NCBI GenBank assembly: GCA_029863065.1 | Contig: JAOTWE010000001.1 | Span: 1 to 53,394 of the forward strand | Length of the DNA: 53,394 nucleotides | From: Betaproteobacteria bacterium | GTDB taxonomy: Bacteria; Pseudomonadota; Gammaproteobacteria; Burkholderiales; SG8-39 | Reading direction: 5' to 3' | Shown: in pieces, positions 7,626 through 48,790 of the stretch | Numbering within the stretch: the first letter of the stretch is position 1 | Layout: each line of letters opens with the position of its first letter | Notes under the pieces: model-generated | What the model saw: only the letters and a program-made list of their open reading frames with translations | The model's database searches: none | Told to the model about the DNA's origin: nothing | Position numbers and translations under genes: made by a program

Positions 7626-8816
7626 TCAATACGAGCGTGGCATGCCGAGAATGTGCTCGCCGATGTATCCGAGCACGAGGTTGGTCGAGATCGGGGCGAT
7701 CTGCATCAGGCGCGTCTCGCGCCACTTGCGCTCGACGTCGTACTCGCGCGCGTAGCCGAACCCGCCATGGGTCTGCATGCAGGCCTCGGCGGCATGCCAG
7801 GCGGCTTCGGACGCCAGCATCTTGCCCATGTTTGCGTCATCGCCGCAGGGCAGGCCTGCCTGGAACAGGGCGGCAGCCTTCCTCAGCAGGATGTCGGCCG
7901 CCTCGATCTCGGCATGGGCGTGCGCGATGGGAAACTGGATGCCCTGGTTCTGGCCGATGGGCCGGCCGAATACCACGCGGTCCTTGGCATACGCGACCGC
8001 GGTCCTGGTAAACCAGCGTCCGTCGCCGATGGCTTCGGCCGCCACCAGGATGCGTTCTGCGTTCATGCCATCAAGAATGTATTTGAAGCCTTTGCCTTCC
8101 TCGCCGATCAGGTTTTCGGCCGGCACCCGTGCGCCGTCGAAGAACACTTCGGTTGTATTGTGGTTGATCATGGCCTTGATCGGCTTGATCTCCAGGCCTT
8201 TGCCGAGGCAGGCGCGGATGTCGAGCAGGAACACCGACAGGCCTTCGGTCTTCTTCTTCACCTGCTCTGCAGGCGTGGTGCGCGCGAGCAGCAGCATCAG
8301 GTCCGAATGCAGCGCGCGCGATGTCCACACCTTCTGGCCATGAATCAGATAGTGATCCCCCTGGCGGACCGCACGCGTTTTCAGTTGCGTGGTGTCCGTG
8401 CCGGTGGTCGGCTCGGTCACGGCGAATGCCTGCAATCTCAGCGCCCCGCTGGCAATCTTCGGCAGATATTGCGCCTTCTGCTCGGGGCTGCCATGGCGTA
8501 ACACGGTGCCCATGATGTACATCTGCGCGTGGCAGGCGCCTGCATTGCAGCCGGCGGCGTGTATCTCTTCCAAAATGGCCGCCGCAGCGCGCAGTGGCAG
8601 CCCCGCCCCGCCGTACTCCTCCGGAATCAGCGCGGCCAGATACCCCGCCTCGGTAAGCGCTTTGACGAACTCGGTCGGATACGCCGAGCGCTCCTCGAGC
8701 TCGCGCCAATAGGCGCCGGGAAAGCTTGCGCAGATCCGGCGCACGCTGGCGCGGATCTCCGGGAAATCCTCGCCCAACGCTACGCCGATGTCCTCAATTC
8801 TTGTCGTGGCAGCCAT
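7626..8816 (-). CDS. acyl-CoA dehydrogenase
   Basis: 396 aa and full-length ACAD-like: GYLAALIPEEYGG, TEPTTGTDT, QIAPISTNLVLGYIGEHILGMPRSY. Confidence 0.9.
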   Translation of the reverse strand: MAATTRIEDIGVALGEDFPEIRASVRRICASFPGAYWRELEERSAYPTEFVKALTEAGYLAALIPEEYGGAGLPLRAAAAILEEIHAAGCNAGACHAQMYIMGTVLRHGSPEQKAQYLPKIASGALRLQAFAVTEPTTGTDTTQLKTRAVRQGDHYLIHGQKVWTSRALHSDLMLLLARTTPAEQVKKKTEGLSVFLLDIRACLGKGLEIKPIKAMINHNTTEVFFDGARVPAENLIGEEGKGFKYILDGMNAERILVAAEAIGDGRWFTRTAVAYAKDRVVFGRPIGQNQGIQFPIAHAHAEIEAADILLRKAAALFQAGLPCGDDANMGKMLASEAAWHAAEACMQTHGGFGYAREYDVERKWRETRLMQIAPISTNLVLGYIGEHILGMPRSY

Positions 8817-8902
8817 GTCGTGTCTGTTTCCTCGCTGGACAATCTTGCGAAATCAGCTTCGGCGGCACATCTGTTCGTCCCAAGATGATGTTTCAGGCGC
8901 AC

Positions 8903-9700
8903 TCAGCGGCCCTTGAATACCGCTTTGCGTTTCTCGTTGAATGCCTTGATACCCTCATAACGGTCCTCAGTTTCAACCAGATGGTTGTACGCCTCGACCT
9001 CGAAACGGTACGCCGTCTTCAACTCCATCTGCATGCCGAAGCGCACCGACTTCTTCACCTGGCGCACCGACAGCGGTGCGTTGGCGGCGATGGTGCGCGC
9101 GGTTTCCAGCACCTTGGGCATCAGCTCCTGCGCTTCGCACAGCTCGTTCGCGAGGCCCCATTCGAAGGCCTGCTGCGCGCTGAACGGCCGCCCGGTCATG
9201 AGGATTTCCTTGGCGCGGCGCTCGCCCAGCGCGCGCGGCAGATTTTGCGTGCCCCCCGCGCCGGGCATGATGCCCAGCGTCACCTCGGTCAGGGCGAAGC
9301 GCGCGCTCTTCACGGCATAGATGAAATCGCAGGACAGGGCGGTCTCCAGGCCGCCGGCATAGGCGTGGCCGTTGATCGCGGCGATCACCGGCAGTGGCAG
9401 GTCGACCAGCGTCCAATATTGACGCTCGAACAACTGGTGCTGGCGCACCCACTGCTCCTTCGACATGCCATGGCGCTCTTTCAGGTCGCCGCCGGCGCAG
9501 AAGATCCTGCCGCCGGCTCCTGTCAGCACCACGCAGCGCACGTCGCCTGCGTCCTCGGTCAGCCGGGTCCACAGGTCGAGGAAATCGCGGCCCATCTGGG
9601 TGTTGATCGCATTGCCCACGTCGGGCCGGTTGAGGGTCACCACGAGGACATGCGGCTCGGCCATTTCCGTCTTGAGGGTTGCGTAGGTCGGCAGTTCCAT
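8903..9700 (-). CDS. enoyl-CoA hydratase/isomerase (crotonase family)
   Basis: 265 aa. Motifs: FCAGGDLKE, AAINGHAYAGGLETALSCDF, and the C-terminal EGIKAFNEKRKAVFKGR. Confidence 0.9.
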   Translation of the reverse strand: MELPTYATLKTEMAEPHVLVVTLNRPDVGNAINTQMGRDFLDLWTRLTEDAGDVRCVVLTGAGGRIFCAGGDLKERHGMSKEQWVRQHQLFERQYWTLVDLPLPVIAAINGHAYAGGLETALSCDFIYAVKSARFALTEVTLGIMPGAGGTQNLPRALGERRAKEILMTGRPFSAQQAFEWGLANELCEAQELMPKVLETARTIAANAPLSVRQVKKSVRFGMQMELKTAYRFEVEAYNHLVETEDRYEGIKAFNEKRKAVFKGR

Positions 9701-9704
9701 TGAT

Positions 9705-10871
9705 TTAGCCTTCGCCTTTGTCGATGAATTCGCCCGTGTGCTCGCCCAGTCTGGGCGGGCGGCTGCGTATGGCGGGACGCACGCCGTCGAAACTCAAGGG
9801 CAGGCCGATGAGCTTCATCGCGCTGCCGGGTACGTTTTGCAACAGGCCCAGCGCGCGCGTCTGCTCGTGCGCGAGCATCTGCGCAAGGTTCTGCACCGGC
9901 GCGCAAGGTATCCCCGCCGTCTCCAGCAGCGCGGTCCACTCGCTGTTGCTGCGCGCGGACATCTCCGCCTCGATCAGCGCATAAAGGATTACCTGGTGCT
10001 CGACCCGCTGCGGGTTGCTCGCAAAGCGCGGGTCCTGCGCCCATTCCGGGTGGCCCAGGACCTGCGCAAGCCGGCGGAACAAGCCGTCGCTGGCGGCGGC
10101 GACCACCAGATCGCCGTCCGCGGTGGCGTACGCACGGTAGGGCACGATGCCGGTCGCGCCGGAGCCCTGCTTCGGCGGTTGCTCGCCGGAGGCCAGATAA
10201 TTCGCGGCCAGCAGCGACACCAGGCTGGTCGCGGTCTCGAACAGGGAGACGTCGACGATTCCGCCCGCGCCGGTGTCGCGCCGCTGATGCAGCCGGGTGA
10301 GAACGCCAATGACGGCCCACATGCCGGTGCCCAAATCGACGATCGACGGACCGACCCGCACCGGCGGGCGTCCGGGCTCGCCGGTGGTGCTCATGATGCC
10401 GCTGAAGGCTTGCATCAGCGGATCGTAGCCAGGCTGCTCCTTGAGCGGGCCGGTACGGCCGAAGGCACCGAGATTGCAGTAGATCAGGGCCGGCTTCTCC
10501 GCCACCAGCGTGGCGCCGTCCAGGCCGAGTTGGTTGACCTGCCCCGGGCGCAGGTTCTGCAGCACGACATCGGCGCGCGCGTTGATCAGGCGCCGAAGCG
10601 CGGCAAGTTGGTGCGGGTCGCGCAGTTCGCAGACGGCCGATTTCTTGTTGCGGTTGAGCGGCTGAAAACTCGCCGCCGCGCCTTCCCAGAACGGTGGCCC
10701 CCATTTGCGCGCATCATCGCCATCGGCTTTTTCTATCTTGATGACTTCGGCGCCCAGGTCACCCAGTATCTGACCCGCGAACGGTGCTGCAACGCTGTTG
10801 CCAAGCTCCACTACGACGATGCCTGCGAGCGGGCCTGTGGTATTCGGTGCGGAATTTGTTCGGCTGGGCAT
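9705..10871 (-). CDS. family III CoA-transferase (CaiB/BaiF-like)
   Basis: 388 aa. The N-terminus GPLAGIVVVELGNSVAAPFAGQILGDLGAEVIKIE is the family hallmark. Confidence 0.9.
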   Translation of the reverse strand: MPSRTNSAPNTTGPLAGIVVVELGNSVAAPFAGQILGDLGAEVIKIEKADGDDARKWGPPFWEGAAASFQPLNRNKKSAVCELRDPHQLAALRRLINARADVVLQNLRPGQVNQLGLDGATLVAEKPALIYCNLGAFGRTGPLKEQPGYDPLMQAFSGIMSTTGEPGRPPVRVGPSIVDLGTGMWAVIGVLTRLHQRRDTGAGGIVDVSLFETATSLVSLLAANYLASGEQPPKQGSGATGIVPYRAYATADGDLVVAAASDGLFRRLAQVLGHPEWAQDPRFASNPQRVEHQVILYALIEAEMSARSNSEWTALLETAGIPCAPVQNLAQMLAHEQTRALGLLQNVPGSAMKLIGLPLSFDGVRPAIRSRPPRLGEHTGEFIDKGEG

Positions 10872-11924: not shown

Positions 11925-12917
11925 ATGAAAATCGCGCAATTCTCTGCTTTCGGAAAGCCCGACGAAGTCATTCGCTGCGTGGACGTCGACGATGTCGGTG
12001 CACCGGGCCCGGACGAGGCGGTGATCGATGTTCTGGCGTTTCCCATCAATCCTGCGGACTTGCTGACCATCGAAGGGCGCTACGCGCTGCGTCCCCCGTT
12101 ACCGGCGCGGCTCGGCGCCGAATGCGTCGGCCGGGTCATCGCGCGGGGGCGTGACGTCCGCGGTCTTGTCGAGGGCGATCTCGTCATTCCGCTCGACCGC
12201 GACAACTGGGTCCAGCGCAAGAAGGTCAAGGCTGCCCAGCTCGTGAAAGTGCCGTCGAATGTCGACCCGCTTCAGCTTGCCATGCTGAAGGTCAATCCGC
12301 CCACCGCGCACCTGATGATGACGAAGTACGTCAAGCTGCAGCCCGGCGAGTGGCTGATCCAGGATGCGGCGAACTCCGGCGTCGGTCACTGCCTTATCCA
12401 GATCGCCAAGGCTGCGGGCATCCGCTCGGTGAACGTCGTGCGCCGCGACGGGCTCGCCGACGAACTCAAGGCGCTCGGCGGCGACGTCGTGGCCGTGGAC
12501 GGCCCGGATCTCGGCGAGCGCGTGCGGGCGGCCACCAATGGCGCGGCGATCCGCCTCGCGATCGATGCGGTGGGTGGGGAGCAGATTGTCCGGCTCGGTG
12601 ATTGCCTGACCGAAGAGGCAGTCATCGTCAACTACGGCCTGCTCTCGGGCGAGAATCCTCAGCTCACCGGCCACCAGACGGTTTTCAAACGGCTTTGGCT
12701 CACTGGATTCTGGCTGATGCCGACGCTGCAGCGCATGGCGCCCGCAGAAATTCAAGAAATGTATGCAATGCTGGCCGGCCGGATCGCGGGCGGTTCGCTG
12801 CGCGTCCCGGTCGAGGCGACTTATCCGATCGAACAGATCGCGCAAGCGGTCGCGCAGGCGAATGCTTATCGCCGCACCGGGAAAGTACTCGTGACGCCGA
12901 ACGGACCGCTGGGGTAG
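11925..12917 (+). CDS. MDR-superfamily NAD(P)H-dependent enoyl/quinone reductase
   Basis: 330 aa. PINPADLLTIEGRY resembles the trans-2-enoyl thioester reductase / zeta-crystallin type. Nucleotide-binding site: ANSGVGHCLIQIAKAAG. Confidence 0.85.
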   Translation: MKIAQFSAFGKPDEVIRCVDVDDVGAPGPDEAVIDVLAFPINPADLLTIEGRYALRPPLPARLGAECVGRVIARGRDVRGLVEGDLVIPLDRDNWVQRKKVKAAQLVKVPSNVDPLQLAMLKVNPPTAHLMMTKYVKLQPGEWLIQDAANSGVGHCLIQIAKAAGIRSVNVVRRDGLADELKALGGDVVAVDGPDLGERVRAATNGAAIRLAIDAVGGEQIVRLGDCLTEEAVIVNYGLLSGENPQLTGHQTVFKRLWLTGFWLMPTLQRMAPAEIQEMYAMLAGRIAGGSLRVPVEATYPIEQIAQAVAQANAYRRTGKVLVTPNGPLG

Positions 12918-13214: not shown

Positions 13215-13607
13215 TTACTTGATGACCTCCCAGAACAAGCCGCCGACGCAGACGAATCCGAGCGTGAACACGAGCGTGCGTATGTACGGCAATCCGAGCC
13301 AGTACACGAGCGCATGCGCGGCCCGGAGCCAGAAGAAGGCCACCGCCCAGAAGGCGGTCATCTCGTTCAGCTTGCCGGTGAGGTGCGCGACGATGACCAG
13401 CACCGCGAATGGGGCGAATACCTCCACGGCATTGAGGTAGACGCGATCGGCGCGCTTGCCCCACAGGGGCACGGGCCGGGGGGTCGGATCGACGTAGTTC
13501 TGTGGCTTCAGCAAACCGTTCGTCATCACCTGGCAGACGACGTAGGGGATCCAGAGCGCCGCGGTCAGCATCGCGGTGTAGGCAAGGTACGTGAGCTCGG
13601 TCTTCAT
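13215..13607 (-). CDS. MAPEG family membrane protein (membrane glutathione-S-transferase-like)
   Basis: The ATG at 13607 has GGGAGG upstream. 130 aa with 4 TM helices. The patterns NAVEVFAPFAVLVIVAHL and RAAHALVYWLG are typical of bacterial MAPEG. Confidence 0.8.
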   Translation of the reverse strand: MKTELTYLAYTAMLTAALWIPYVVCQVMTNGLLKPQNYVDPTPRPVPLWGKRADRVYLNAVEVFAPFAVLVIVAHLTGKLNEMTAFWAVAFFWLRAAHALVYWLGLPYIRTLVFTLGFVCVGGLFWEVIK

Positions 13608-13716: not shown

Positions 13717-14481
13717 TCAGCCCTCGTCCCAGATCTTGTCCGTCAGCGGCAGGTCGCGGATCTCTGCAGCGCCGAGCGGCTGGTCTGGCGCGATGCCGAT
13801 CGACTCGAGCAGCGCGGCAAGCTGCCGCACGTGCTGCGCCGAATGCCACACGGTGCGCTCGAGCATCTCGTGCCGGCTGGTGCCGCCGAAGTAGGTTTCG
13901 ACGGGCTGCGTGAAGTCCGCGCCGGCATTGCGCGCCCACCAGTCCGCGAAGCGTTCGCGCACCGCCTCGCCGAAGGCGGCGATCGACGCGTTCGACAACA
14001 TGTCATCAGGAGGCGCTGCCGTCATGACCTCATACTCGAGCCGCGTGCCCTTTTCCTCCATCTCGAGGAACGCTACGGGGATCTGGAAGACATGGTGCGC
14101 GAGCACGCGCCAGGAGCGCGGCCGGTTCGGCAGTACGTTGCCGAGCGCCGAATCCGGCAACTGGCGCACCAGGCGCACCGCTGTACCGAGCACGACATCC
14201 GCGCGTGCGGCGAGCGCAGCCGGCGCGAGCACTGGCCCGCCCGCTTCGCCCAGGCCGAGGAAGGCGATGACTTCCGTAATGACCTGCGCGTAGACGAAGC
14301 GCCCGTCGCGCGCCACCACCGGCACCGAGCGCGCGCCGAGCGCGCGCAACGCCGCCAGGCCCTCGGCGTCTTCGAGGACGTTGATCGACTGGAACCCGAT
14401 CCCACGGACCGAGAGATACTCCTTAAGCCGGAGGCAGCTGGTTCAGTGCGGCTGCCAGAAGACCTGGATCGATGCGCTCAT
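13717..14481 (-). CDS. glutaredoxin-like domain fused to a DinB-family domain, interrupted by an in-frame TGA at 14445-14443 (candidate selenocysteine, or a pseudogene)
   Basis: Hand translation from the ATG at 14481 gives MSASIQVFWQPH-TGA-TSCLRLKEYLSVRGIGFQSINVLEDAEGLAALRALGARSVPVV..., continuing in frame into track ORF 13717-14349. The DinB-like His pattern is HHVF...HSAQH. The TGA occupies the first Cys position of the Grx CxxC motif. Confidence 0.6.
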
Positions 14482-14570
14482 GGGGATGTCCTGTGTGCGG
14501 AAGGAGAAGCATACATCGCAGCCGCCCATGCGTAGGGATTGCGACGCACCATCGCCTCGATGGCGTTCGC

Positions 14571-15557
14571 TCAGGGCAGGAGCACGATCTTGCCCTGCAC
14601 CTGGCGCGATTCGAAGCGCGCCAGCGCCTCGGCGAAGCGCTCGAGCGGGTAGCGCGCCGTGATTTCCGGCTTCAACTTCCCCTCTCCGTACAGCGCGTAG
14701 AGTTCTTCCTGCACTCGCTGCACGCGCCCGGGCTCGCGCCCGCGGTAGTCGGTCCACTGCAGCCCGAGCACCGCGAGGTTCTTGACCAGCAGATAGCCCG
14801 CCTTCGCCTCGGGAACGCGCCCGGAGGCGAAGCCGATCGACACCAGGCGGCCGCACCAGGCGAGCGCGCGCAGCGCGCCGTCGAAGGCGTCGCCGCCGAC
14901 GCTGTCGAGCACGATGTCCACGCCGCGTTTGCCGACGGCGGCCTGCACCTGCGCGCGCACACTCTCGCGCAGGTCCGGCGCCGCGAGGTCGATGACGTGA
15001 TCGGCGCCGTGGCGCTTGCACAGTTCGCCCTTTTCCTTGCTGGTGACGCCGGCAATCACGGTGGCGCCGAGCGCCTTGGCGAGCTGCACGCCCGCCAGGC
15101 CAACGCCGCCCGAGGCGCCGGTGACGAGAACGGTTTCGCCCCTCTTGTAGGCGCCGCGCTCGAGGAGCGCGAAGTGCGCAGTCTGGTAGGCGAGTGCCAG
15201 CACCGCGCCTTCGTCGAAGGGCATCGCCGGTGGCATTCGATAGCAGATCGCCTCGGGCACGACGACCTTTTCCGCGAAAGCGCCGTACTCGGGCAGCGCC
15301 ATGACGCGATCGCCGAGACGCACGCGCTCCACGCCCGCGCCGATCGCGCCGACCACCCCCGCCACCTCCTTGCCCGGGCTGAAGGGCCGCGGCGGCAGCA
15401 GCTGGTAGCTGCCCTGCATCACCATCAGGTCGGGAAAATTGACGCCGAACGCGCGCGCCTCGATCAGCACCTCGCCGCGCGCGGGCACCGGGTCGGGGAC
15501 GGTCTCGAGCCGGTGCTGCGCGACGGGCCCGTGCTCGCGGACGATGACCGCGCGCAT
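14571..15557 (-). CDS. NADPH:quinone oxidoreductase (zeta-crystallin type MDR)
   Basis: 328 aa. Motifs: MRAVIVREHGP, GVNFPDLMVMQGSY, VTGASGGVGLAGVQLAKALGA, and the C-terminal [10 protein letters not shown]. Confidence 0.9.
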   Translation of the reverse strand: MRAVIVREHGPVAQHRLETVPDPVPARGEVLIEARAFGVNFPDLMVMQGSYQLLPPRPFSPGKEVAGVVGAIGAGVERVRLGDRVMALPEYGAFAEKVVVPEAICYRMPPAMPFDEGAVLALAYQTAHFALLERGAYKRGETVLVTGASGGVGLAGVQLAKALGATVIAGVTSKEKGELCKRHGADHVIDLAAPDLRESVRAQVQAAVGKRGVDIVLDSVGGDAFDGALRALAWCGRLVSIGFASGRVPEAKAGYLLVKNLAVLGLQWTDYRGREPGRVQRVQEELYALYGEGKLKPEITARYPLERFAEALARFESRQVQGKIVLLP

Positions 15558-16207: not shown

Positions 16208-17083
16208 TCAGGCTCCGAATATCTTCGAGTCTTTGTAGACGTGAAAGCCGCGCCCGGTTTTCTTGCCCAGGTGCCCGGCGGCGATCATGCGCCTCACCAG
16301 CGGCGGGCACGCGGCGCGCGGCTCGTGCGTCGCGCCGTGCATCGCCTCGCATACCAGCAGATGCGTATCCATGCCGACGAGATCGAGGAGCTCGAACGGG
16401 CCCATGGCGTAGCCCATCGCGTCCTTGATGGCCTTGTCGATCTCGGCGGGCTCGGCGACGCCCGCCTCGACCAGCCGGATGGCGTCGTTGTTGAACGGGA
16501 TGAGGAAGTAATTGAGGATGAAGCCCGGGCTGTCCTTGGTCTTCACCGGGTGCTGGCCGAGCGCCTGGCAGAACGCCCACGCCGCCTGGAAGCTCGCCTC
16601 GCTCGTATTCAGGCCGGGCGACATCTCCACGAGCTTCATCAGCTGCGCCGGCAGGCAGAAATGCATGCCGACGAAGCGGTCGTCGCGCCCCGAGCCACCC
16701 GCGATCTCGGTGATCGAGATGGTCGAAGTGTTCGACGCGAAAAGCGTGTGCGCCGGGCAGATCTTGTCGAGCTGGGCGAACAGCGCGTGCTTCACCTTCA
16801 GGTCCTCGAACACCGCCTCGATGACGACGTCGCAGGCCTTGAAATCCCCGAGCTTCGAGGTGCCGACGAGGTTGGCGAGGATCGCACTCACCTGCTCGGG
16901 CTTCAACTTGCCGCGCTCGACCGACTTGGCGAAGAACGCCTCGCTCTGTTTGCGCGCCTTTGCGAGCGCCTCGGCGCGCGTGTCGTAGACGAGCGTGCGG
17001 AAACCCGCGCGTGCCGCGACGATCGCGATGCCCGCGCCCATGGTGCCGCAACCCGCGACGCCTACGGTGCGTATGTCAGCCAT
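16208..17083 (-). CDS. 3-hydroxybutyryl-CoA / 3-hydroxyacyl-CoA dehydrogenase
   Basis: 291 aa. Motifs: VGVAGCGTMGAGIAIVAARAG, SNTSTISITEIA, PGFILNYFLIPFNNDAIRLVE. Confidence 0.9.
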   Translation of the reverse strand: MADIRTVGVAGCGTMGAGIAIVAARAGFRTLVYDTRAEALAKARKQSEAFFAKSVERGKLKPEQVSAILANLVGTSKLGDFKACDVVIEAVFEDLKVKHALFAQLDKICPAHTLFASNTSTISITEIAGGSGRDDRFVGMHFCLPAQLMKLVEMSPGLNTSEASFQAAWAFCQALGQHPVKTKDSPGFILNYFLIPFNNDAIRLVEAGVAEPAEIDKAIKDAMGYAMGPFELLDLVGMDTHLLVCEAMHGATHEPRAACPPLVRRMIAAGHLGKKTGRGFHVYKDSKIFGA

Positions 17084-18254
17084 GCGTTCCCCTGTCGATG
17101 AAGCTGCGCCCGATGAGCTGGCGGTGGATCTGGTTGGTGCCTTCCCAGATCTGGGTGATCTTGGCGTCGCGCATCAGGCGCTCGACGCGGTAATCCTTGC
17201 AGTAGCCGTAGCCGCCGTGCAGCTGCACCGCCTCGGTGGCGATGCGCATCGCCAGGTCCGAGGCGCGCAGCTTCAGCATCGAGGCCTCGATGCCGATGTC
17301 CTGCGCGCCGCCGTCGACCAGGCGCGCGACATGCCACAGCCACGCCTCGCACTGCGCGAGCTCGGCGGCGAGGTCGGCGAGCAGGAACTGGATGCCCTGG
17401 AATTCGATGATGCGCCGGCCGGACTGGCGCCGCTCGTTGATGTAGGCCACCGCGTCCTCGAAGGCCGCGCGCGCGATGCCGAGCGCGTGCGCCGCGACGC
17501 TCGGGCGCGACTTGTTGAGCGAGGCGAGAAGAAGCGCGAGGCCGTCGCCCGGCTTGCCGAGGAGGTTGGCGCGCGGCACGCGGCAGCCGTCGAAGGCGAG
17601 GGTCGCGGTGCCGGAGGCGCGGATCCCCATCTTGTCCTCGGTGCGCACCACCGACAGTCCCGGCGTGCCCTTCTCGAGAATCAGGGCCGAAATGGACTTT
17701 CGCTCGTCGTCGATCTCGCTCCACTTGCCGAAGAGGAGCATCAGGTCGGCGAGATCACCGTTGGTGATGAAGGTCTTGCCGCCGTCGACGACGATGTGCT
17801 CGCCCTCTGGGCGAAAGCGCGTCTTCATGCCGGTGGCGTCCGACCCCGCGCTGGGCTCGGTGATGGCGAGCGCGACCAGGCCGCCCTGCGCGATGCGCGG
17901 CAGCAAACGCTTTTTCTGCTCCTCGTTGCCGAAGTCGACGAGCGGCTTGATGCCGTGGAAGTTGGTCGCCCAGATGATGCCGGTCGCGGCGCAGGCCTGG
18001 CTGATCTCGCGCACGCAGGCAAGGTACGCGGCGTAGGACACGGGGTGCCCGCCGTAGGCCTCGGGGATGAACATCGCGTTCAGGCCGAGCGCGTTGATCG
18101 CCTTCAGGTTATCGTGCGGAAACTCGGCCGTGCGGTCGTGGTGTTCGGCGCGCGGGGCGATGGCCTCGTGCGCGAGCGTGCGCACGGCCTCGACCAGCAT
18201 GCGCTCTTCGTCCTTCAGGGCAAGCGTGCCGTCGAGGCGCTCGAAGACGTTCAT
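17076..18254 (-). CDS. acyl-CoA dehydrogenase
   Basis: The ATG at 18254 overlaps the upstream stop (ATGA). Sequence: MNVFERLDGTLALKDEERMLVEAVR...ITEPSAGSD...IWEGTNQIHRQLIGRSFI. Confidence 0.9.
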   Translation of the reverse strand: MNVFERLDGTLALKDEERMLVEAVRTLAHEAIAPRAEHHDRTAEFPHDNLKAINALGLNAMFIPEAYGGHPVSYAAYLACVREISQACAATGIIWATNFHGIKPLVDFGNEEQKKRLLPRIAQGGLVALAITEPSAGSDATGMKTRFRPEGEHIVVDGGKTFITNGDLADLMLLFGKWSEIDDERKSISALILEKGTPGLSVVRTEDKMGIRASGTATLAFDGCRVPRANLLGKPGDGLALLLASLNKSRPSVAAHALGIARAAFEDAVAYINERRQSGRRIIEFQGIQFLLADLAAELAQCEAWLWHVARLVDGGAQDIGIEASMLKLRASDLAMRIATEAVQLHGGYGYCKDYRVERLMRDAKITQIWEGTNQIHRQLIGRSFIDRGTHG

Positions 18255-18976
18255 CAGTGCGCTATGCCCTGGCCGCCGTCGAGGTAGATCGTCTCGCCGG
18301 TGAGATACGGAATGTCCTCGGAGAACAGCATCGCCACCAGCCGCGCGACGTCCTGGACGCTTCCAGGTCCGCCGGTCGGCACGCGCGCTTCCAGAAAGGC
18401 GCGCAGCGGGCCCTTCTGCATCGCCTCGGCATTGAGCTCGGTTTCGATGTAGCCGGGCGCGACGTCGAGCACGCGGATCTTCTGCGGCGCCCACTCGACC
18501 GCCAGGCAGCGCGTGATGGCGCCGACCGCCGCCTTGGAGGCGCAGTAGGCGAGGTTGCGCTTGACGCCGAGCTTGTCGAAGAACGAGCCGATGTTGACGA
18601 TGGTGCCGCCGTCGCGCGCCAGGTAGGGATAGATTTCGCGGCAGACGACGAATACACCGCGCGCGTTGGTATCCATGACCTCGTCGTAGACGCCGGTGGC
18701 GAGCTCGTGCGATTTGCCGTCGAGGTGGATGCCGGCGTTGTTCACCAGTCCGGCGATGTTGCCGGCGCGCTCGGCGAGCGTCGCCAGCGCCTGCCGGACC
18801 GAGGTGACGTCGGTGACGTCGCAGGCGATGGGGATGCAGCGCTCGTGCTCGGGACCGCCACCTTTGCGCGTCAGGCAGCCGACGGTGAAGCCGCGCCCGG
18901 CCAGCTCGAGCGCGATCGCCGCGCCGATGCCCCGGCTCGCGCCGGTGACCGCGATGACGCGGTTCTCGCCGGCCAC
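18254..18976 (-). CDS. SDR family oxidoreductase (BadH-like position in operon)
   Basis: The GTG at 18976 lies 1 nt after the upstream stop. Motifs: VIAVTGASRGIGAAIALELA, NNAG, YCASKAA. Confidence 0.85.
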   Translation of the reverse strand: MAGENRVIAVTGASRGIGAAIALELAGRGFTVGCLTRKGGGPEHERCIPIACDVTDVTSVRQALATLAERAGNIAGLVNNAGIHLDGKSHELATGVYDEVMDTNARGVFVVCREIYPYLARDGGTIVNIGSFFDKLGVKRNLAYCASKAAVGAITRCLAVEWAPQKIRVLDVAPGYIETELNAEAMQKGPLRAFLEARVPTGGPGSVQDVARLVAMLFSEDIPYLTGETIYLDGGQGIAH

Positions 18977-18977
18977 G

Positions 18978-19745
18978 TCAGCGGTCCCTGAACGCGGGCT
19001 TGCGCTTGGCCATGAACGCCGCCATGCCCTCGGCGGCGTCCTCGGTCTGGAAGGCAAGCGTGGAGAGGTCGGCCTCGATCTTCAGCCCCTCGGCGACCGG
19101 CGTATCGAGCGCGCGCGTCACCGCCTCGCGCGCAAAGCCGAGCACCGGCAGGCTGTGGCCGGAAAACTCGCGCGCGAAGGCCATGCCCTGGGCGAGCGCG
19201 TCGCCCTCGACCACGCGGCTCACCAGCCCCCAGGAAAGAGCCGTTGGCGCATCGATGGGTTTGCCGGTGAGCACCATCTCCAGCGCGCGCGCCTCGCCGA
19301 CCACGCGCGGCAGGCGCTGCGTGCCGCCGTAGCCCGGGATGAGGCCGAGCTTGATTTCGGGCGTGCCGAGCCGCGCGTTCGGCGTGGCGAGGCGGAAGGT
19401 GCAGGCGAGCGCGAGCTCGAGCCCGCCGCCGAAGGCGTAGCCGTTGATGATTGCCACCGAAGGCATCGGCAGGCGCTCGAGCTTCGCGAACGTCGCCTGG
19501 CCGTGCTCGGCGCCGCGCTTTTTCTGCAAGAGCGAGCGGTTGGCGAGCTCGCCGATGTCGGCGCCGGCGCAGAAGGCTTTTTCGCCCGCGCCGGTGATGA
19601 GCAGCGCGCGCGCATCGCCCGCGGCCACCTCGTCGAAGGCGCGGCCGAGGTCCTTGATCAGCGCGAACGACAGCGCGTTCAGCGCCTGCGGCCGGTTGAG
19701 GCGGATCAGAGCGAATTCCTCGATGCGCGAGAGTTCTACGGACAC
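18978..19745 (-). CDS. enoyl-CoA hydratase (crotonase; BadK-like position)
   Basis: 255 aa. Motifs: FCAGADIGE, AIINGYAFGGGLELALACTF, EGMAAFMAKRKPAFRDR. Confidence 0.9.
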   Translation of the reverse strand: MSVELSRIEEFALIRLNRPQALNALSFALIKDLGRAFDEVAAGDARALLITGAGEKAFCAGADIGELANRSLLQKKRGAEHGQATFAKLERLPMPSVAIINGYAFGGGLELALACTFRLATPNARLGTPEIKLGLIPGYGGTQRLPRVVGEARALEMVLTGKPIDAPTALSWGLVSRVVEGDALAQGMAFAREFSGHSLPVLGFAREAVTRALDTPVAEGLKIEADLSTLAFQTEDAAEGMAAFMAKRKPAFRDR

Positions 19746-19746
19746 G

Positions 19747-21372
19747 TCATTTCTCCTTTGCGGGTTCGCTCCAGCGCACCGGCTGCGGCGCGATGCGGCC
19801 GTTCTTCGCCCATTCCTGCAGCTCGCGCTTCAGGATCTTGCCGCTCGCGGTGAGCGGGAAGGCATCCAGCGCGAGGAAGTATTCGGGCATGTCGTATTTG
19901 GAGAGGCCGACCGCGTGCAGGTGATCGAGCAGCGCCTCCCCGGTCACGCGCTCGCCCTCGCGGCAGATTACCGCAAGGCAGACCTTCTCGCCGAGGCGCG
20001 CATCGGCGACGCCGAAGGCTGCAGCCTTCTGCACCGCGGCGTGCTGGTGCGCGAGGTCCTCGATCCGCGCCGGGTGGATGTTGTGGCCGCCGCGGATGAT
20101 GAGGTCTTTCTTGCGGCCCATGATGCGCAGGCAGCCGCGCTCGTCGAGCGTGCCGAGGTCGCCCGACATGAACCAACCGTTTTTGTTGAACGAATCCTCG
20201 GTGGTCGCCTGGTTGTCGAAATAGCCGAGCATCAGCAGCGCACCGCGCGTGCCGATCTCGCCGACCGTTCCCGGCGGCACTTCGAGGTCGGGGTTCTCCT
20301 GGCTGAAGATGCGCGTCTCGTAGCCGTGGCAGGCGCGGCCGCAGGTCTCGACGATGGTCTGCGCGTCGTCGGTGGGCAGGGTGTACTGGTGCGAGCCGTT
20401 CTCGCTCATGCCGTAGATGTTCTGCGGCGTGATTCCCATGCCGAGGAAGGTCTGCGCCACTTCGCGCGGAATCGGCGAGCCCGCCATGTAAAAAAGGCGC
20501 ACCGCGCCGAGCTGCACCAGGCCGCGGCGCTTGGCCTCGGCGAGGATGTCGATGGCGTGCGTCGGCACGCCCATGATGTAAGTGGCGCCGCAGGCGATCG
20601 CCCAGTCGAGCGGCGTCATGCCCGCGGGCGGGTCTCTCAGCACCAGCTCGAAGCCCGCGGCCATCATCTGCTCGATCGCCACGGCGCCGATGTGGTGGCT
20701 CGTGGGCGAGAGGCTGAGGAGCACCGTCGAATGATCGTGATGCCAGTCGGTGACCATGGCGCGGCCATTGGCGAGCATCGTGTTGTCCGAGTGCATCACG
20801 CCCTTGGGCACGCCGGTGGTGCCCGAGGTGAAGGCCATGTAAATGATCTTGTCGGGGTCGTCGACCGGCGGCACGTCGCAGGCCGCGCCCGGCGCCGGGA
20901 ACGAAGTGCCGTTGACGTCGAATACAGTCTTCATCGGGGGGAGCGCCTGCGCGCCACGTGCGCCGGGCGCGCCGTAGCCCGTCTGCATCACCAGCGCCGC
21001 GGCGCGCGTGCGCTCCAGGAGCTGCACGATCTCGGCGGCGGTGTAGTTCTGGTGCAGCGAGGGCACGCATATGTATCCGTTCCTCGCGCAGGCAAGCAGC
21101 GCCACCACGCTCTCGGCGCGCGAAGGCAGCCACACGGCGACGCGCTGGCCGCGGCGCACGCCCGCCTGGTGCAGCCCTTGTGCCACCGCGTCGACCCAGG
21201 CGAGCAGCTCGTTCCAGGTGAGCCGCACGCGCGCATCGCGCAGCGCGTACCTTTCGGGGTGCCCGGCGGCGTGTCGTTGCAGAAGCGAATAGAAGGTGTC
21301 CTTGCGCCACGCGCCCGAGGCGTAATGGCGCGCCGCCTGCTGCGGGTTAAGCAGGGTCAGGACCGTGTTCAT
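19747..21372 (-). CDS. AMP-dependent acyl-CoA synthetase/ligase (AliA-like position)
   Basis: The ATG at 21372 gives MNTVLTLLNPQQAARHY. AMP-binding motifs: MAFTSGTTGVPKGVMH, YGMSENG, GWFMSGDLG, IIRGGHNI, SGKILKRELQ. Confidence 0.9.
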   Translation of the reverse strand: MNTVLTLLNPQQAARHYASGAWRKDTFYSLLQRHAAGHPERYALRDARVRLTWNELLAWVDAVAQGLHQAGVRRGQRVAVWLPSRAESVVALLACARNGYICVPSLHQNYTAAEIVQLLERTRAAALVMQTGYGAPGARGAQALPPMKTVFDVNGTSFPAPGAACDVPPVDDPDKIIYMAFTSGTTGVPKGVMHSDNTMLANGRAMVTDWHHDHSTVLLSLSPTSHHIGAVAIEQMMAAGFELVLRDPPAGMTPLDWAIACGATYIMGVPTHAIDILAEAKRRGLVQLGAVRLFYMAGSPIPREVAQTFLGMGITPQNIYGMSENGSHQYTLPTDDAQTIVETCGRACHGYETRIFSQENPDLEVPPGTVGEIGTRGALLMLGYFDNQATTEDSFNKNGWFMSGDLGTLDERGCLRIMGRKKDLIIRGGHNIHPARIEDLAHQHAAVQKAAAFGVADARLGEKVCLAVICREGERVTGEALLDHLHAVGLSKYDMPEYFLALDAFPLTASGKILKRELQEWAKNGRIAPQPVRWSEPAKEK

Positions 21373-21376
21373 GGCC

Positions 21377-22156
21377 CTAGTGGCCGAACTTGTCCGGGTC
21401 GGGCTTGCGCCTGGCGCGGAACGCCTCCGCGAGCTCGTGCGACTCGTCGGTCTCGAGGTAGGGACGCAGCAAAAGGTCGTGCGCCACGCGCGCCAGGCCC
21501 GAGACGCCGCCGTGGCGCGCGTTGAAGGCGGCCTTGATCGAGGCGAGCGCGAAGGCGCCGCGCTCGGCGAGCTCGAGCGCCATCTTCTTCGTCTCTTCAC
21601 GCAGCTGGTCGTCGGGCACCACGCGGTTGACGAGTCCGATGGCGAGCGCCTCGCGCGCGGAGAGCTTCGGGTTCAGCATCCACATTTCCTTGGCCTTCTT
21701 CTTGCCGACCAGGTCCTCGAGGTACCAGGTGCCGTAGCCGGCGTCGAAGCTGCCCATCATCGGCCCGACCTGGCGGAACACCGCGCTTTCCTTGGCGATC
21801 GTCAGGTCGCACATCACCTGCAGCACATTGCCGCCGCCGACCGCGAAACCGTTGACCGAGGCGATGACGGGTTTTTGCAGCCGGTCGATCGCTTCGTACA
21901 TCTCGAGCGTCGGCAGGACCCCGGCGTAGAGCAGCGTGTCCTCCATGCCTTCCTTGCGGCCGCCGATGCAGAAGAACTTGTCGCCGGCGCCGGTGATGAT
22001 GAGCACACGAGTGCGCGTCTCGCGCCGCACCTCGTTGATGCAGTCGCGGATCTCGTGACACATCTGCGGCGTGAACATGTTGCCGTCGTCGGGACGGTTG
22101 AGGGTGAGCCAGCCGATCGGCCCGTCCTCCTGGTAGAGAATGGTTTCAAAGCTCAC
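21377..22156 (-). CDS. MenB/BadI-type crotonase-superfamily enzyme (candidate 2-ketoacyl-CoA ring hydrolase)
   Basis: 259 aa. FCIGGRKEG, SVNGFAVGGGNVLQVMCDLTIA and GSFDAGYGTWYLEDLVGKKKAKEMW resemble the MenB/BadI subgroup rather than plain hydratases. Confidence 0.8.
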   Translation of the reverse strand: MSFETILYQEDGPIGWLTLNRPDDGNMFTPQMCHEIRDCINEVRRETRTRVLIITGAGDKFFCIGGRKEGMEDTLLYAGVLPTLEMYEAIDRLQKPVIASVNGFAVGGGNVLQVMCDLTIAKESAVFRQVGPMMGSFDAGYGTWYLEDLVGKKKAKEMWMLNPKLSAREALAIGLVNRVVPDDQLREETKKMALELAERGAFALASIKAAFNARHGGVSGLARVAHDLLLRPYLETDESHELAEAFRARRKPDPDKFGH

Positions 22157-40577: not shown

Positions 40578-41432
40578 CTACAGGCGCGCGAGCAGACGCG
40601 CCCAGCCCTCGTCCACTTCACGCTGCAACGTTGCCACGACGCCCTCGTCGAGCTCGCGGTAGCGGCGCTGCCCCTCGAGGTAATCGCGCACCGGCCGCGA
40701 CTTGTGCGGCTCGTTGAGCGTGAAGCGGTACCCGTCCTCCACCTCGTAAAGTGGGAACACGCCCGTCTGCACCGCAAGGCGCGCGAGCGCGATACCCTGG
40801 TCCTCGGGCACGCCCCAGCCGTCGAGGCAGGGAACGAGCAGCGTGATGAGGCGCATGCCGCGGATCGCCCTGGCCTTTTCCACCTTGCGCAGCAGATCCG
40901 GCAGGAAGCCCGAGCTCGCAGTGGCGGCGTAGGGGATTTCGTGCGCCGCCATGATGGCGGTGAGGTTCTTCTTGCGCGTCGGCTTGCCGGCGGGCGTCGA
41001 GCCGGTGCGCGCGAAGTGCGGCGTCGAGGACGACTTCTGCGCGCCAGTGTTCATGTAGCCCTCGTTGTCGAAGCAGACGTAGAGGATGTTTTCGTTCCTC
41101 TCGGCGGCGGAAGACAGCGCCTGGAAGCCGATGTCGTAGGTGCCGCCGTCGCCCGCGAACACCACCACCTGCGTGTCCTTCTTGCCGAGCGCATCGAGCG
41201 CGCGCCGCAGGCCCGAGGCCGAAGCGGCGGACGTGGCGAGCGCCGGCTGGTACACCGGGATGCGCAGGCCCGAGAGCGGCTGCGGCCCGGCCATGATCGC
41301 GAGGCACGAAGGCGGAATCACCGCCACCGTGTCGGGGCCGAGCGCGCCGAGCACGTGGCGCAGCGACAGCGCCTCGACGCAGCCCGGGCAGGCGGCGTGC
41401 CCGGAACAGAGCAGGTCGGTCATCAGGCCCAT
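40578..41432 (-). CDS. 2-oxoacid:ferredoxin oxidoreductase beta (TPP-binding) subunit
   Basis: CPGCVEALSLRHV, GDGGTYDIGFQALS and ENILYVCFDNEGYMNTG form the TPP-binding motif context. Confidence 0.9.
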   Translation of the reverse strand: MGLMTDLLCSGHAACPGCVEALSLRHVLGALGPDTVAVIPPSCLAIMAGPQPLSGLRIPVYQPALATSAASASGLRRALDALGKKDTQVVVFAGDGGTYDIGFQALSSAAERNENILYVCFDNEGYMNTGAQKSSSTPHFARTGSTPAGKPTRKKNLTAIMAAHEIPYAATASSGFLPDLLRKVEKARAIRGMRLITLLVPCLDGWGVPEDQGIALARLAVQTGVFPLYEVEDGYRFTLNEPHKSRPVRDYLEGQRRYRELDEGVVATLQREVDEGWARLLARL

Positions 41433-42577
41433 ACGGCCTCCGGCACGATGTCCTCGATGCGCGCGCCCCGCGCGAGCTCAGCGATCATCGCCGCCGACAC
41501 GTTGACCCCGCCCACCCCCGCCAGCACGCCGCGCACGTCCGGCGCGTGCTTCATGCCGTAGAGCGCGCCGCGCAGCTCCTGGTGCAGCACGCCGCCGGCG
41601 CCGGGCGAGAAATTGCGGTCGAGCACCAGCACGTCGCGCACGCCGGCGAGCGCCGCGCGCAGCTCGGCCGCCGGCAGCGGCCGGAACAGGCGCACCTTGA
41701 GCAGGCCCGCCGCAATGCCGGCCTCGCGCAGCGCGTCGACCGCTTCGCGCGCGGTGCCGCACATGCTGCCGAGGCTGACGATGACCAGATCGGCGCCCTC
41801 GCAGCGGTAGCGCTCGGTGATGCCCCAACCCCGGCCGGTGAGTGCCTGCCATTCGCGATCGGCTTCCGCGGCGACCTCCGGCACGCGCGCCATGGCCTCG
41901 CCGAGGCTCTTGCGATGGCGGCGGTACATGTCCTGGGTGACGACGTTGCCCCACGATTCGCCGCGTTCGGGATCGAGGAAATGCTCGGGCGCGTAGGCGG
42001 GCAGGTAGGCATCCACCAGCGCCTGCGGCGGCACGTGCACCGGCTCGAGCGCATGCGAGACGTAAAACGCGTCGAGATTGAGCATCACCGGCAGGCTCAC
42101 TGCTTCGGCGATGCGGAACGCCTGCAGCACCGTGTCGAGCGCCTCCTGCGCCGACTCGACGTACAGCTGCACCCAGCCGGTGTCGCGCTGCGCGAGGCTG
42201 TCGGTCTGGTCGGGCCAGAAGGCCCAGGGCGAAGCCACGGTGCGGTTGACGTTCGCCATCACGATCGGCGCGCGTGCACCACTCGCGTAATGCAGCAGCT
42301 CGTGCATCAGCATCAGGCCCTGCGAGGCGGTGGCGGTGAACACGCGCGCGCCGGCGAGCGACGCCGGGATGCACGCCGCCATCACCGAGTGCTCGGATTC
42401 GGGCGTGAGGAACTCCGCGTCGAGACCACCGGCGGCCTGGAACTCGGTGAGGAGCTCGAGCACCGGCGTTTGCGGCGTGATCGGGTACACCGGCACCACC
42501 TTCGGGCGCGCAAGGCGCGCGCCCCAGGCGACGGCGTGGTTGCCAGTGAGCAGCGAGCGCGTCTCGGCGGCGCTCAT
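41423..42577 (-). CDS. 2-oxoacid:ferredoxin oxidoreductase alpha subunit
   Basis: The ATG at 42577 starts the ORF with an ATGA overlap. Motifs: LLTGNHAVAWGARLARPKVVPVYPITPQT and ESEHSVMAACIPASLAG. Confidence 0.9.
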   Translation of the reverse strand: MSAAETRSLLTGNHAVAWGARLARPKVVPVYPITPQTPVLELLTEFQAAGGLDAEFLTPESEHSVMAACIPASLAGARVFTATASQGLMLMHELLHYASGARAPIVMANVNRTVASPWAFWPDQTDSLAQRDTGWVQLYVESAQEALDTVLQAFRIAEAVSLPVMLNLDAFYVSHALEPVHVPPQALVDAYLPAYAPEHFLDPERGESWGNVVTQDMYRRHRKSLGEAMARVPEVAAEADREWQALTGRGWGITERYRCEGADLVIVSLGSMCGTAREAVDALREAGIAAGLLKVRLFRPLPAAELRAALAGVRDVLVLDRNFSPGAGGVLHQELRGALYGMKHAPDVRGVLAGVGGVNVSAAMIAELARGARIEDIVPEAVWA

Positions 42578-48577: not shown

Positions 48578-48790
48578 AGAATCTTGATCCTCCCCGCATT
48601 GCCCAATTTTTCCGGCTCGATGCCGGTGCCGGCAATGCACCATACCCCTCCCGTTTGCTTTGACCTGCGCCCCCGGCAAAGCGTTCTCCGGGTCGCCACA
48701 ATTGAGCCCGGTCAACTCACGCCGGCCGGGGCGCGCTAATGTGGTTCATCATTGATCGGGCCGCGCCGGGTCGCGGCCGTACTCGCGAGA

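Follow-up and report, generated by a model that had tools for sequence, protein, structure and literature searches.

The question raised by this locus is whether an in-frame TGA close to the start of a minus-strand gene terminates translation or encodes selenocysteine (Sec). The gene lies in a stretch of DNA of 53,394 nucleotides (nt), termed the window, which comprises positions 1 to 53,394 of contig JAOTWE010000001.1 from the assembly of a Betaproteobacteria bacterium (GCA_029863065.1). The minus-strand ATG at 14481-14479 opens MSASIQVFWQPH, followed by the TGA at 14445-14443 and, in the same frame, by TSCLRLKEYLSVRGIGF... up to the stop codon at 13719-13717, so that, with the TGA decoded, the frame 14481->13717 comprises 254 sense positions. 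The mechanical list of open reading frames (ORFs) contains only a 210-amino acid piece started at a TTG (13717-14349). An earlier inspection of the letters and the ORF list, referred to here as the sequence-only reading, had described an in-frame TGA continuing into this 210-amino acid ORF with its internal TTG start, and had placed the TGA at the first position of a CxxC-type motif in a glutaredoxin (Grx) domain fused to a DinB domain. Translation shows the position and frame to be accurate to the base and the internal start to be as described, and the placement of the motif is confirmed by Pfam, a fold search and the alignment of orthologues. The same reading had left open a Sec-containing fusion or a pseudogene arising in one step. 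The comparison of sequences makes it almost certain that this TGA encodes selenocysteine in a Grx-DinB fusion, an option supported by conservation of the TGA, synonymous change in its flanks, cysteine homologues, a downstream hairpin, linkage to sel genes and the intact state of the window copy.

The TGA is conserved without exception. Eighty loci were fetched from species-representative genomes, of which 79 are usable at the TGA column and, with the window, give 80 copies; they derive from Burkholderiales and other Betaproteobacteria, many Alphaproteobacteria (including Hyphomicrobiaceae and Rhodospirillales), Gammaproteobacteria and two Planctomycetota. The tblastn alignment crosses the TGA over residues 1-254 of the window protein in 70+ loci, nearly all of the 80 fetched. 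Codon 13 is TGA in 80/80 copies, and TAA, TAG or a sense codon is found in none, at a protein identity among the TGA-bearing copies of 55-93%. The flanks read ...VFWQPH*TSCLRVKEYLSVRGIEF... throughout the copies. Upstream of the TGA, codons 7-12 change near-exclusively at synonymous sites, with four codons used for Val, two for Gln, four for Pro and two for His and with Trp fixed, the sole non-synonymous exception being Phe8 to Tyr in four copies; directly 3' of the TGA the residues T-S-C do not vary across the codon alignment of 80 sequences. It follows that this region is translated and in the same frame as the sequence downstream, a pattern that neither a pseudogene nor a leader placed before a short gene can explain. 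ATG occupies the aligned start column in 66/80 copies. Of the residues that never vary among the other 79 copies, the window copy retains 49/49; compared with relatives it has a dN/dS of 0.11-0.36, and it is intact with no sign of decay. In the locus L077, a 1,951-nt Acetobacteraceae contig, positions 1-200 hold unrelated sequence in place of the first ~19 codons including the TGA, and either the copy is truncated or the assembly has joined unrelated pieces here.

These observations bear on two explanations in which the TGA remains a stop. The first is a pseudogene, a single TGC/TGT to TGA mutation having killed a Cys-type Grx-DinB gene so that at most a truncated DinB fragment is made. A single step does separate TGA from TGC, as seen in P0048, a natural Cys form, and Sec machinery is not seen in the window, but the same TGA recurs in all copies over several classes, the codons upstream are under purifying, synonymous-only change, the window copy keeps every invariant residue at a dN/dS of ~0.3 and a dedicated conserved hairpin follows the TGA. 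Pseudogenization in one step is hence not borne out; for this gene it is exceedingly improbable, and for the family as a whole it is effectively refuted. The second explanation takes the annotated short gene as real, with a DinB-only protein made from an internal TTG or ATG and the 12 upstream codons serving as a leader or staying untranslated. Gene callers and PGAP annotate the gene in this way, with products of 202-240 amino acids called "DinB family protein" or "NrdH-redoxin". However, the called starts differ among orthologues (residues 18, 24, 33, 42, 45 and 53) and every one of them would split the Grx fold, the Grx domain is conserved as protein including strand 1 and the redox motif, and the Cys-form relatives are translated at full length; a short gene of this kind is thus very hard to credit.

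The pairing of Sec with Cys in homologues is the standard comparative signature that defines selenoprotein families (PMC1088965, PMC12013277), and it is found here in both near and distant relatives. P0048 (252 amino acids, loci L081-L083) is full length, reads WQPHCTSC and has TGC in its DNA at codon 13. An exhaustive representative search gives 929 relatives, many of them full length (250-276 amino acids) with 30-46% identity. In 47 distant full-length relatives (29-45% identity) Cys occupies both the Sec column and the resolving position in at least 90%, within motifs such as WQPGCSSC, WQPGCTSC and RPHCSSC, and the two of the 47 that were checked in DNA both have TGT. The orthologue column singled out in the sequence-only reading as one to be inspected for Cys or TGA is therefore TGA in the close copies and Cys in P0048 and the distant relatives. 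P0048 is the only close Cys form, and its closest TGA-bearing relative among the loci is a Rubripirellula (Planctomycetota) metagenome-assembled genome. A further protein, P0255 (721 amino acids), contains the whole Grx-DinB unit at residues 470-718; judged by this sequence, the module is also found as the C-terminal part of a larger fusion.

A second line of evidence lies in the RNA downstream of the TGA. The TGA and 72 downstream nt of all 80 copies were aligned and folded with RNAalifold, which yields a single helix formed by columns 34-39 with 45-50 (UCGGUC-CGUGR-GAUCGA, window 14412-14396). As a 17-mer the hairpin reads UCGGUCCGUGGGAUCGA, and the window copy has a U-G closing pair where the pair is otherwise U-A. 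The distance from the UGA is 30 nt to the stem and 36 nt to the loop, the latter within the 16-37 nt from UGA to loop of the bSECISearch model. The helix is paired in 99.1% of cells, clearly above controls in which the register was slid, and compensatory double changes occur at two of its pairs (UA to GC and GC to AU). Among the copies the loop reads CGUGG 66 times, CGUGA 11 times and CGUGC 3 times, with the G and U of the loop invariant. The codons that encode the hairpin show the same constraint from another side. The ratio of observed to expected synonymous entropy has a gene-wide mean of 0.85 (sd 0.21, 138 conserved codons), whereas codons 24-28 have ratios of 0.05, 0, 0, 0.07 and 0.37, and their mean of 0.10 is the lowest of any five-codon stretch in the gene. 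These codons are frozen as Ser TCG (72/73), Val GTC (71/71), Arg CGT (80/80), Gly GGG (65/66) and Ile ATC (74/80), whereas the residues flanking them, which are equally conserved, drift freely at synonymous sites. The codon-level entropy profile is stronger evidence for an RNA element than the pairing of the helix. In the Cys-form subfamilies the S-V-R-G-I segment is unconserved, reading IDNGI, TEHGI, TKQGI or still other sequences, and the diverged Cys-form genes, of which the DNA of two was checked, lack the hairpin.

The sequence-only reading had pointed to two hairpins after the UGA, and the alignment upholds its expectation of a conserved hairpin at this place through the helix pairing and the frozen synonymous sites, with changes in detail. 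The window does contain its 4-bp hairpin at 14433-14419, but over the family as a whole just 63% of cells are paired, and this hairpin is rejected as a family feature. Its second stem, at 14410-14393, overlaps the conserved element but is drawn in the wrong register, the true stem being that of Table 1. A possible weak helix that places the UGA in a 14-nt loop is paired in 95.7% of cells, but conserved codons dictate four of its five pairs; the fifth, which is free to vary, is GC in 53 copies, AU in 7 (compensatory), GU in 2 and broken in 13, and CAA co-occurs with AGT with a Fisher p of 5e-4 calculated without phylogenetic correction. Apart from this helix and the 17-nt hairpin there is no conserved structure from -39 to +93 nt. 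A search of the entire window against Rfam gives nothing at the gathering threshold, and relaxing E to 10 for 14300-14520 brings up only noise. In the Sec insertion sequence (SECIS) of Escherichia coli fdhF a minimal upper stem-loop of 17 nt is bound by SelB. The family hairpin resembles this element in being an in-frame coding hairpin of 17 nt downstream of the UGA with an apical loop that is small and holds a conserved G and U, and it differs in having no bulged U, no conserved lower stem, a 30-nt spacing and no Rfam match.

The genomic neighborhood of several relatives connects the gene with Sec synthesis. In five Hyphomicrobiaceae loci a 472-amino acid gene on the same strand, 94-235 nt downstream, is selA (TIGR00474, 592-597 bits against a cut-off of 268). 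In the metagenome contigs L084 and L085 the gene is part of a co-directional island comprising a UGSC-family selenoprotein gene, Grx-DinB, selA, selB, a Prx-like selenoprotein gene and an ndh-selD fusion, in which selB scores 428 bits with TIGR00475 and the SelD part of the fusion 289 bits with TIGR00476; the Grx-DinB gene in both contigs carries the TGA as well as the hairpin. At least some carriers of Grx-DinB demonstrably have Sec machinery adjoining the gene. This linkage matters for an explanation in which the UGA is read through as something other than Sec, as Trp or Cys by a near-cognate or mis-charged tRNA, the Sec machinery having been lost or never possessed. In its favor are the undemonstrated Sec machinery of the source genome and the fact that Cys works at position 13 in relatives, but nothing would then keep TGA over TGC/TGT, or the hairpin frozen, in 80 lineages, and Sec genes adjoin the Grx-DinB gene in some members, which leaves this explanation highly unlikely. 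Within the island two genes have in-frame TGA codons and are mis-called as two fragments each, likewise in L084 and L085: the UGSC-family gene (L084 1219-1743, ...SGIGD*GSCSSC...) and the AhpC/TSA Prx-like gene (L084 7191-7670, ...FYRGHW*PYC...). The gene at L084 7754-10018 encodes a 754-amino acid fusion of a pyridine-nucleotide-disulfide oxidoreductase with SelD (TIGR03169 and TIGR00476), and the Ndh-SelD type of fusion is reported to be common in marine samples (GOS paper, PMC2398784).

A number of results weigh against reading this gene as a selenoprotein whose UGA is recoded through the hairpin. No selA, selB, selC or selD was found in the 53-kb window by a tRNA scan and by profiling of the larger genes. 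ARAGORN detects a single tRNA-Leu as the only tRNA of the window and one tRNA in 60 loci, with no tRNA-Sec, and the ten largest window genes include no SelA, SelB or SelD, being assigned to coenzyme A (CoA)/fatty-acid metabolism, a major facilitator superfamily transporter, PorA-like, DesA or unassigned. Sec machinery is also absent within 10 kb in L086, the closest relative on a long contig (84% identical). The hairpin itself is small (6 bp, ~-7 kcal/mol), its spacing of 30 nt from UGA to stem exceeds the 11 nt of E. coli fdhF, and it is present in the single-sequence minimum free energy fold of only 44/80 copies, while the 75-nt window segment folds no better than shuffled sequences (z = 0.69). 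Compensatory events are few (four cells) because the hairpin is nearly invariant. P0048, with TGC, still has the hairpin, so that the expectation of a hairpin confined to TGA-bearing genes agrees with the diverged Cys forms but not with this protein. The comparison with P0048 is uninformative because a single nucleotide differs and the hairpin is still there; its sequence is consistent with a very recent TGA to TGC replacement with a relic hairpin. Finally, no experimental report of selenium incorporation or enzymatic activity for any family member was found in the literature.

Part of this bears on the role of the hairpin rather than on Sec. The gene could encode a selenoprotein while the 17-nt hairpin serves another RNA role (stability, pausing or regulation) and SelB uses a different or diffuse signal. 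The long spacing and short stem would fit such a role, as would the weak second helix flanking the UGA and the marine members from the GOS survey (considered below), which have K-Q-R-G-I and not S-V-R-G-I and in which an identical hairpin is not encodable. However, the hairpin is the only conserved structure of the region bar the weak helix, has a small loop with an invariant G and U, is missing from the diverged Cys-form genes and lies within the distance range of the bSECISearch model, so that this arrangement is given a small probability. Weighed together, the results make it very probable that the gene encodes a ~27-kDa selenoprotein with a Sec-Thr-Ser-Cys Grx module, a DinB/YfiT bundle with a predicted three-His metal site and hairpin-directed recoding of the UGA. 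Recoding is backed by the comparative evidence, and its mechanism is one that we infer.

The domain structure of the predicted protein was examined with the TGA position modeled as Cys. Pfam Glutaredoxin (PF00462) matches residues 6-63 with an E value of 3.7e-10 and 40.3 bits against a gathering threshold of 22.9. Pfam DinB_2 (PF12867) matches residues 102-221 with an E value of 8.4e-5 and 23.5 bits, below the gathering threshold of 24.8, and several orthologues carry precomputed PF12867 or PF05163 matches. NCBIfam returns generic Grx/NrdH matches only (best 37 bits against equivalog cut-offs of 86-131); it contains no full-length model for the Grx-DinB family and the protein reaches no Grx, NrdH or mycoredoxin equivalog. 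The AlphaFold2 model of the Cys form (pLDDT 86, pTM 0.72) has a Grx fold at residues 1-72, a linker and a helical bundle at residues 85-225, with the CxxC placed between the strand 5-9 and the helix 14-25. A PDB sequence search with the DinB half gave nothing meaningful, and a fold search was therefore needed. Foldseek matches the bundle best to DR0053 (PDB code 6iz2, E 2e-5, target TM 0.83) and also to BH3987 (2f22), 3di5 and YfiT/BstA (1rxq), and these DinB/YfiT matches have target TM values of 0.61-0.83 at a sequence identity of 9-19%. Homology to glutathione S-transferases was considered and rejected, whole-chain Foldseek matches to these having a root mean square deviation of ~14 Å and a TM of ~0.27.

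The STL (DinB/YfiT) superfamily combines this fold with three metal-binding histidines, H67, H160 and H164 in BstA, and its tested members are metal-dependent thiol S-transferases (PMC5815605). In the sequence comparison the window residues H130, H213 and H217 are conserved in both the Sec and Cys subfamilies with the H...H-x3-H spacing of BstA. Table 1 collects the coordinates of the gene, its codons, its RNA elements and its domains.

Table 1. Features of the Grx-DinB gene in the window (positions of the whole stretch)
Feature	Coordinates	Strand	Basis and remarks
Ribosome-binding-site-like AGGA	14489..14492	-	7 nt upstream of ATG 14481; read from the sequence
Full coding sequence of the predicted selenoprotein	13717..14481	-	254 residues, Sec as position 13, stop codon 13717-13719; one-frame translation
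UGA codon 13, predicted to be read as Sec	14443..14445	-	TGA in 80/80 copies; Cys in P0048 and distant full-length relatives
Redox motif U-T-S-C, codons 13-16, start of Grx helix 1	14434..14445	-	T14, S15 and C16 invariant (80-sequence codon alignment)
Possible weak helix, UGA in 14-nt loop	14433..14456	-	GGCAG 14456-14452 (Trp9-Gln10) with CUGCC 14437-14433 (Ser15-Cys16-Leu17)
SECIS-like 17-nt hairpin	14396..14412	-	Stem 14412-14407 with 14401-14396, loop CGUGG 14406-14402
Glutaredoxin/NrdH-like domain, ~residues 1-72	14266..14481	-	PF00462; beta-alpha-beta-alpha-beta-beta-alpha in model; PDB 7c12 best sequence match
DinB/YfiT (STL) four-helix-bundle domain, ~residues 87-227	13801..14223	-	Foldseek; Pfam DinB_2 just under cut-off
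His130 codon, proposed first metal ligand, His129 adjoining	14092..14094	-	Invariant in A1 and A3; equals P0048 H128, at least 90% in Cys and Sec subfamilies
His213-x3-His217 (W-H-S-A-Q-H), proposed second and third metal ligands	13831..13845	-	P0048 H211 at least 90%, H215 invariant (48 diverse Grx-DinB proteins)

Comparison with known systems shows which parts of this arrangement have been seen before. The GOS survey of 2008 (Zhang and Gladyshev, PLoS Genet, PMC2398784) lists in its Table 2 a "Grx-like" family (pfam00462, UxxC) with 42 Sec sequences and 255 Cys homologues. The "#Grx-like" block of its supplementary data (PMC2398784, file 3) consists mainly of the Grx-DinB family at full length with U at the same position. 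These sequences read ...FWQPHUTSC...LPNRPRSW...HHVFQ...RTVWHSTQH... and belong to the same family as the window protein, which has 53% identity to JCVI_READ_735691 over 252 residues (E 1e-101); the file contains 26-29 instances of the motif WQPHUTSC. The suggestion of the sequence-only reading that a Sec-containing fusion would be a new selenoprotein family is therefore not upheld. The survey amounts to an independent prediction that members of this family are selenoproteins. On its sequence the window gene is a fresh member, from another habitat and lineage, of a computationally predicted selenoprotein family already catalogued: the GOS members are from marine plankton, whereas the window copy belongs to a Burkholderiales-like organism of high GC content. 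At the codons that encode the hairpin as SVRGI in the 80 genome loci, the marine clade reads KQRGI, and its SECIS must therefore differ in sequence. The same block also contains sister subfamilies with QPGUSSC and QPGUTSC in the same Grx-DinB architecture, and one read has two adjacent U residues (HUUSC). The DinB domain is unmentioned in the main text of the survey (PMC2398784). Neither DinB nor Grx-DinB is an entry among the 119 prokaryotic selenoprotein families of a 2026 inventory, a 2022 review has no separate entry either, and no paper linking selenocysteine with DinB in a relevant way was found. No earlier description appears to exist of the C-terminal DinB identity, the frozen 17-nt hairpin, the linkage to sel islands or the near-universal truncation in annotation.

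Each half of the protein has characterized counterparts. A stand-alone Sec-glutaredoxin with PF00462 and UxxC is known, for example, as the Clostridium oremlandii Grx (cited in PMC13188914). The window module shares with such proteins the Trx-like fold, the Sec at the first position of UxxC at the start of helix 1 and the match to Pfam Glutaredoxin, and it is distinguished from them by its fusion to a DinB domain of ~170 residues and by the motif U-T-S-C. The classic glutaredoxin motif is of the C-P-Y-C type. With the DinB/YfiT (STL) proteins BstA/YfiT, DR0053 and BH3987 the C-terminal domain shares the four-helix bundle and, as judged from its sequence, the His...His-x3-His pattern. The characterized STL members are single-domain proteins that use free bacillithiol or mycothiol, whereas Grx-DinB has its own redox domain and occurs in Proteobacteria of the glutathione type. 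The multi-domain DinB enzymes EgtB and LmbV similarly combine DinB with a second domain thought to set specificity (PMC5815605), but there the partner is an FGE-sulfatase-type domain, whereas in Grx-DinB it would be a Sec-glutaredoxin placed N-terminal to DinB, with no conserved pathway context. Canonical glutathione S-transferases likewise have an N-terminal Trx fold and a C-terminal helical domain, but the likeness is one of architecture only, the helical domain of Grx-DinB being a DinB bundle with a predicted metal site and with no real structural equivalence.

In the window the gene is flanked by a medium-chain dehydrogenase/reductase (MDR)/quinone-oxidoreductase-type gene (14571-15557, minus strand) and a MAPEG gene (13215-13607, minus strand). 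These three minus-strand genes have no promoter or terminator consensus between them, and beyond MAPEG, at 13209-13195, lies a terminator-like hairpin; the three may be co-transcribed. The sequence-only reading had taken this setting as a thiol/quinone detoxification context. The neighbors it named are present, but the setting is not conserved across the family: clustering of the neighbors in 79 loci gives no widely shared neighbor, the largest cluster being an amidase in 10 loci, and the quinone-oxidoreductase/MAPEG setting is rejected as a clue at the level of the family, being lineage-specific. A further MDR/zinc-alcohol-dehydrogenase-type oxidoreductase gene lies nearby (11925-12917, plus strand). 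The remainder of the window is mostly devoted to acyl-CoA metabolism (7626-10871, 16208-21600, 41423-42733 and 48752-49981), with acyl-CoA dehydrogenases, a CaiB-type CoA-transferase, 3-hydroxyacyl-CoA dehydrogenase-like ORFs and an acyl-CoA ligase, and also contains a PorA-like alpha subunit of a 2-oxoacid:ferredoxin oxidoreductase and a DesA-family desaturase; several window genes of 365-491 amino acids have no NCBIfam match.

In the mechanism proposed for the selenoprotein, UGA codon 13 would be decoded as selenocysteine by SelB with Sec-tRNA(Sec), which would bind the 17-nt hairpin within the coding sequence and so be tethered to the approaching ribosome. The RNA requirement of the hairpin would freeze the codons for Ser-Val-Arg-Gly-Ile at positions 24-28. 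In the protein, the selenolate at the N terminus of Grx helix 1 would attack a disulfide or electrophilic substrate and Cys16 would resolve the intermediate as a selenenylsulfide, while the DinB domain, by analogy with the metal-dependent bacillithiol and mycothiol S-transferases, may bind and activate a co-substrate. The fusion would then act as a thiol/selenol-dependent transferase or reductase, and we infer, by this analogy, a redox or transferase enzyme in which Sec/Cys16 of the Grx module may cooperate with the metal-dependent site of the DinB domain. It is a speculative and rather doubtful extension of this scheme that the tethered Sec-Grx replaces the free low-molecular-weight thiol, that the protein has a role in selenium handling in some lineages and that the hairpin, 30 nt from the UGA, devoid of a lower stem and held constant base by base in several bacterial classes, represents a distinct compact class of SECIS. 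The role in selenium handling is suggested because the gene heads a selA-selB-(Prx-like selenoprotein)-ndh::selD island in some lineages.

Automated annotation takes the UGA as a stop and consequently yields no more than a shortened piece labelled "DinB family" or "NrdH-redoxin". A first protein search gave 833 relatives; among the 120 listed, 119 are N-terminally truncated calls of 187-240 amino acids whose starts scatter just 3' of the motif, and P0048 is the sole full-length protein. A second search gave 1,856 matches and, among the 120 listed per search, all calls but P0048 begin after the TGA. The truncated calls are named "DinB family protein", "NrdH-redoxin" or "hypothetical protein". 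With truncated calls, no NCBIfam model and no inventory entry, the active-site domain is therefore invisible to users of annotation. A protein hidden Markov model together with the hairpin motif would correct the truncated records.

The sharply bounded freeze of synonymous sites offers a clear natural case in which an RNA element constrains a protein sequence. The family would represent a widespread selenoprotein of soil, freshwater and marine bacteria that joins two modules of thiol chemistry, Grx and DinB/STL. The STL superfamily has >30,000 members, whose natural substrates are largely unknown, and a built-in selenol with an occasional link to a sel operon would offer a concrete route for their study.

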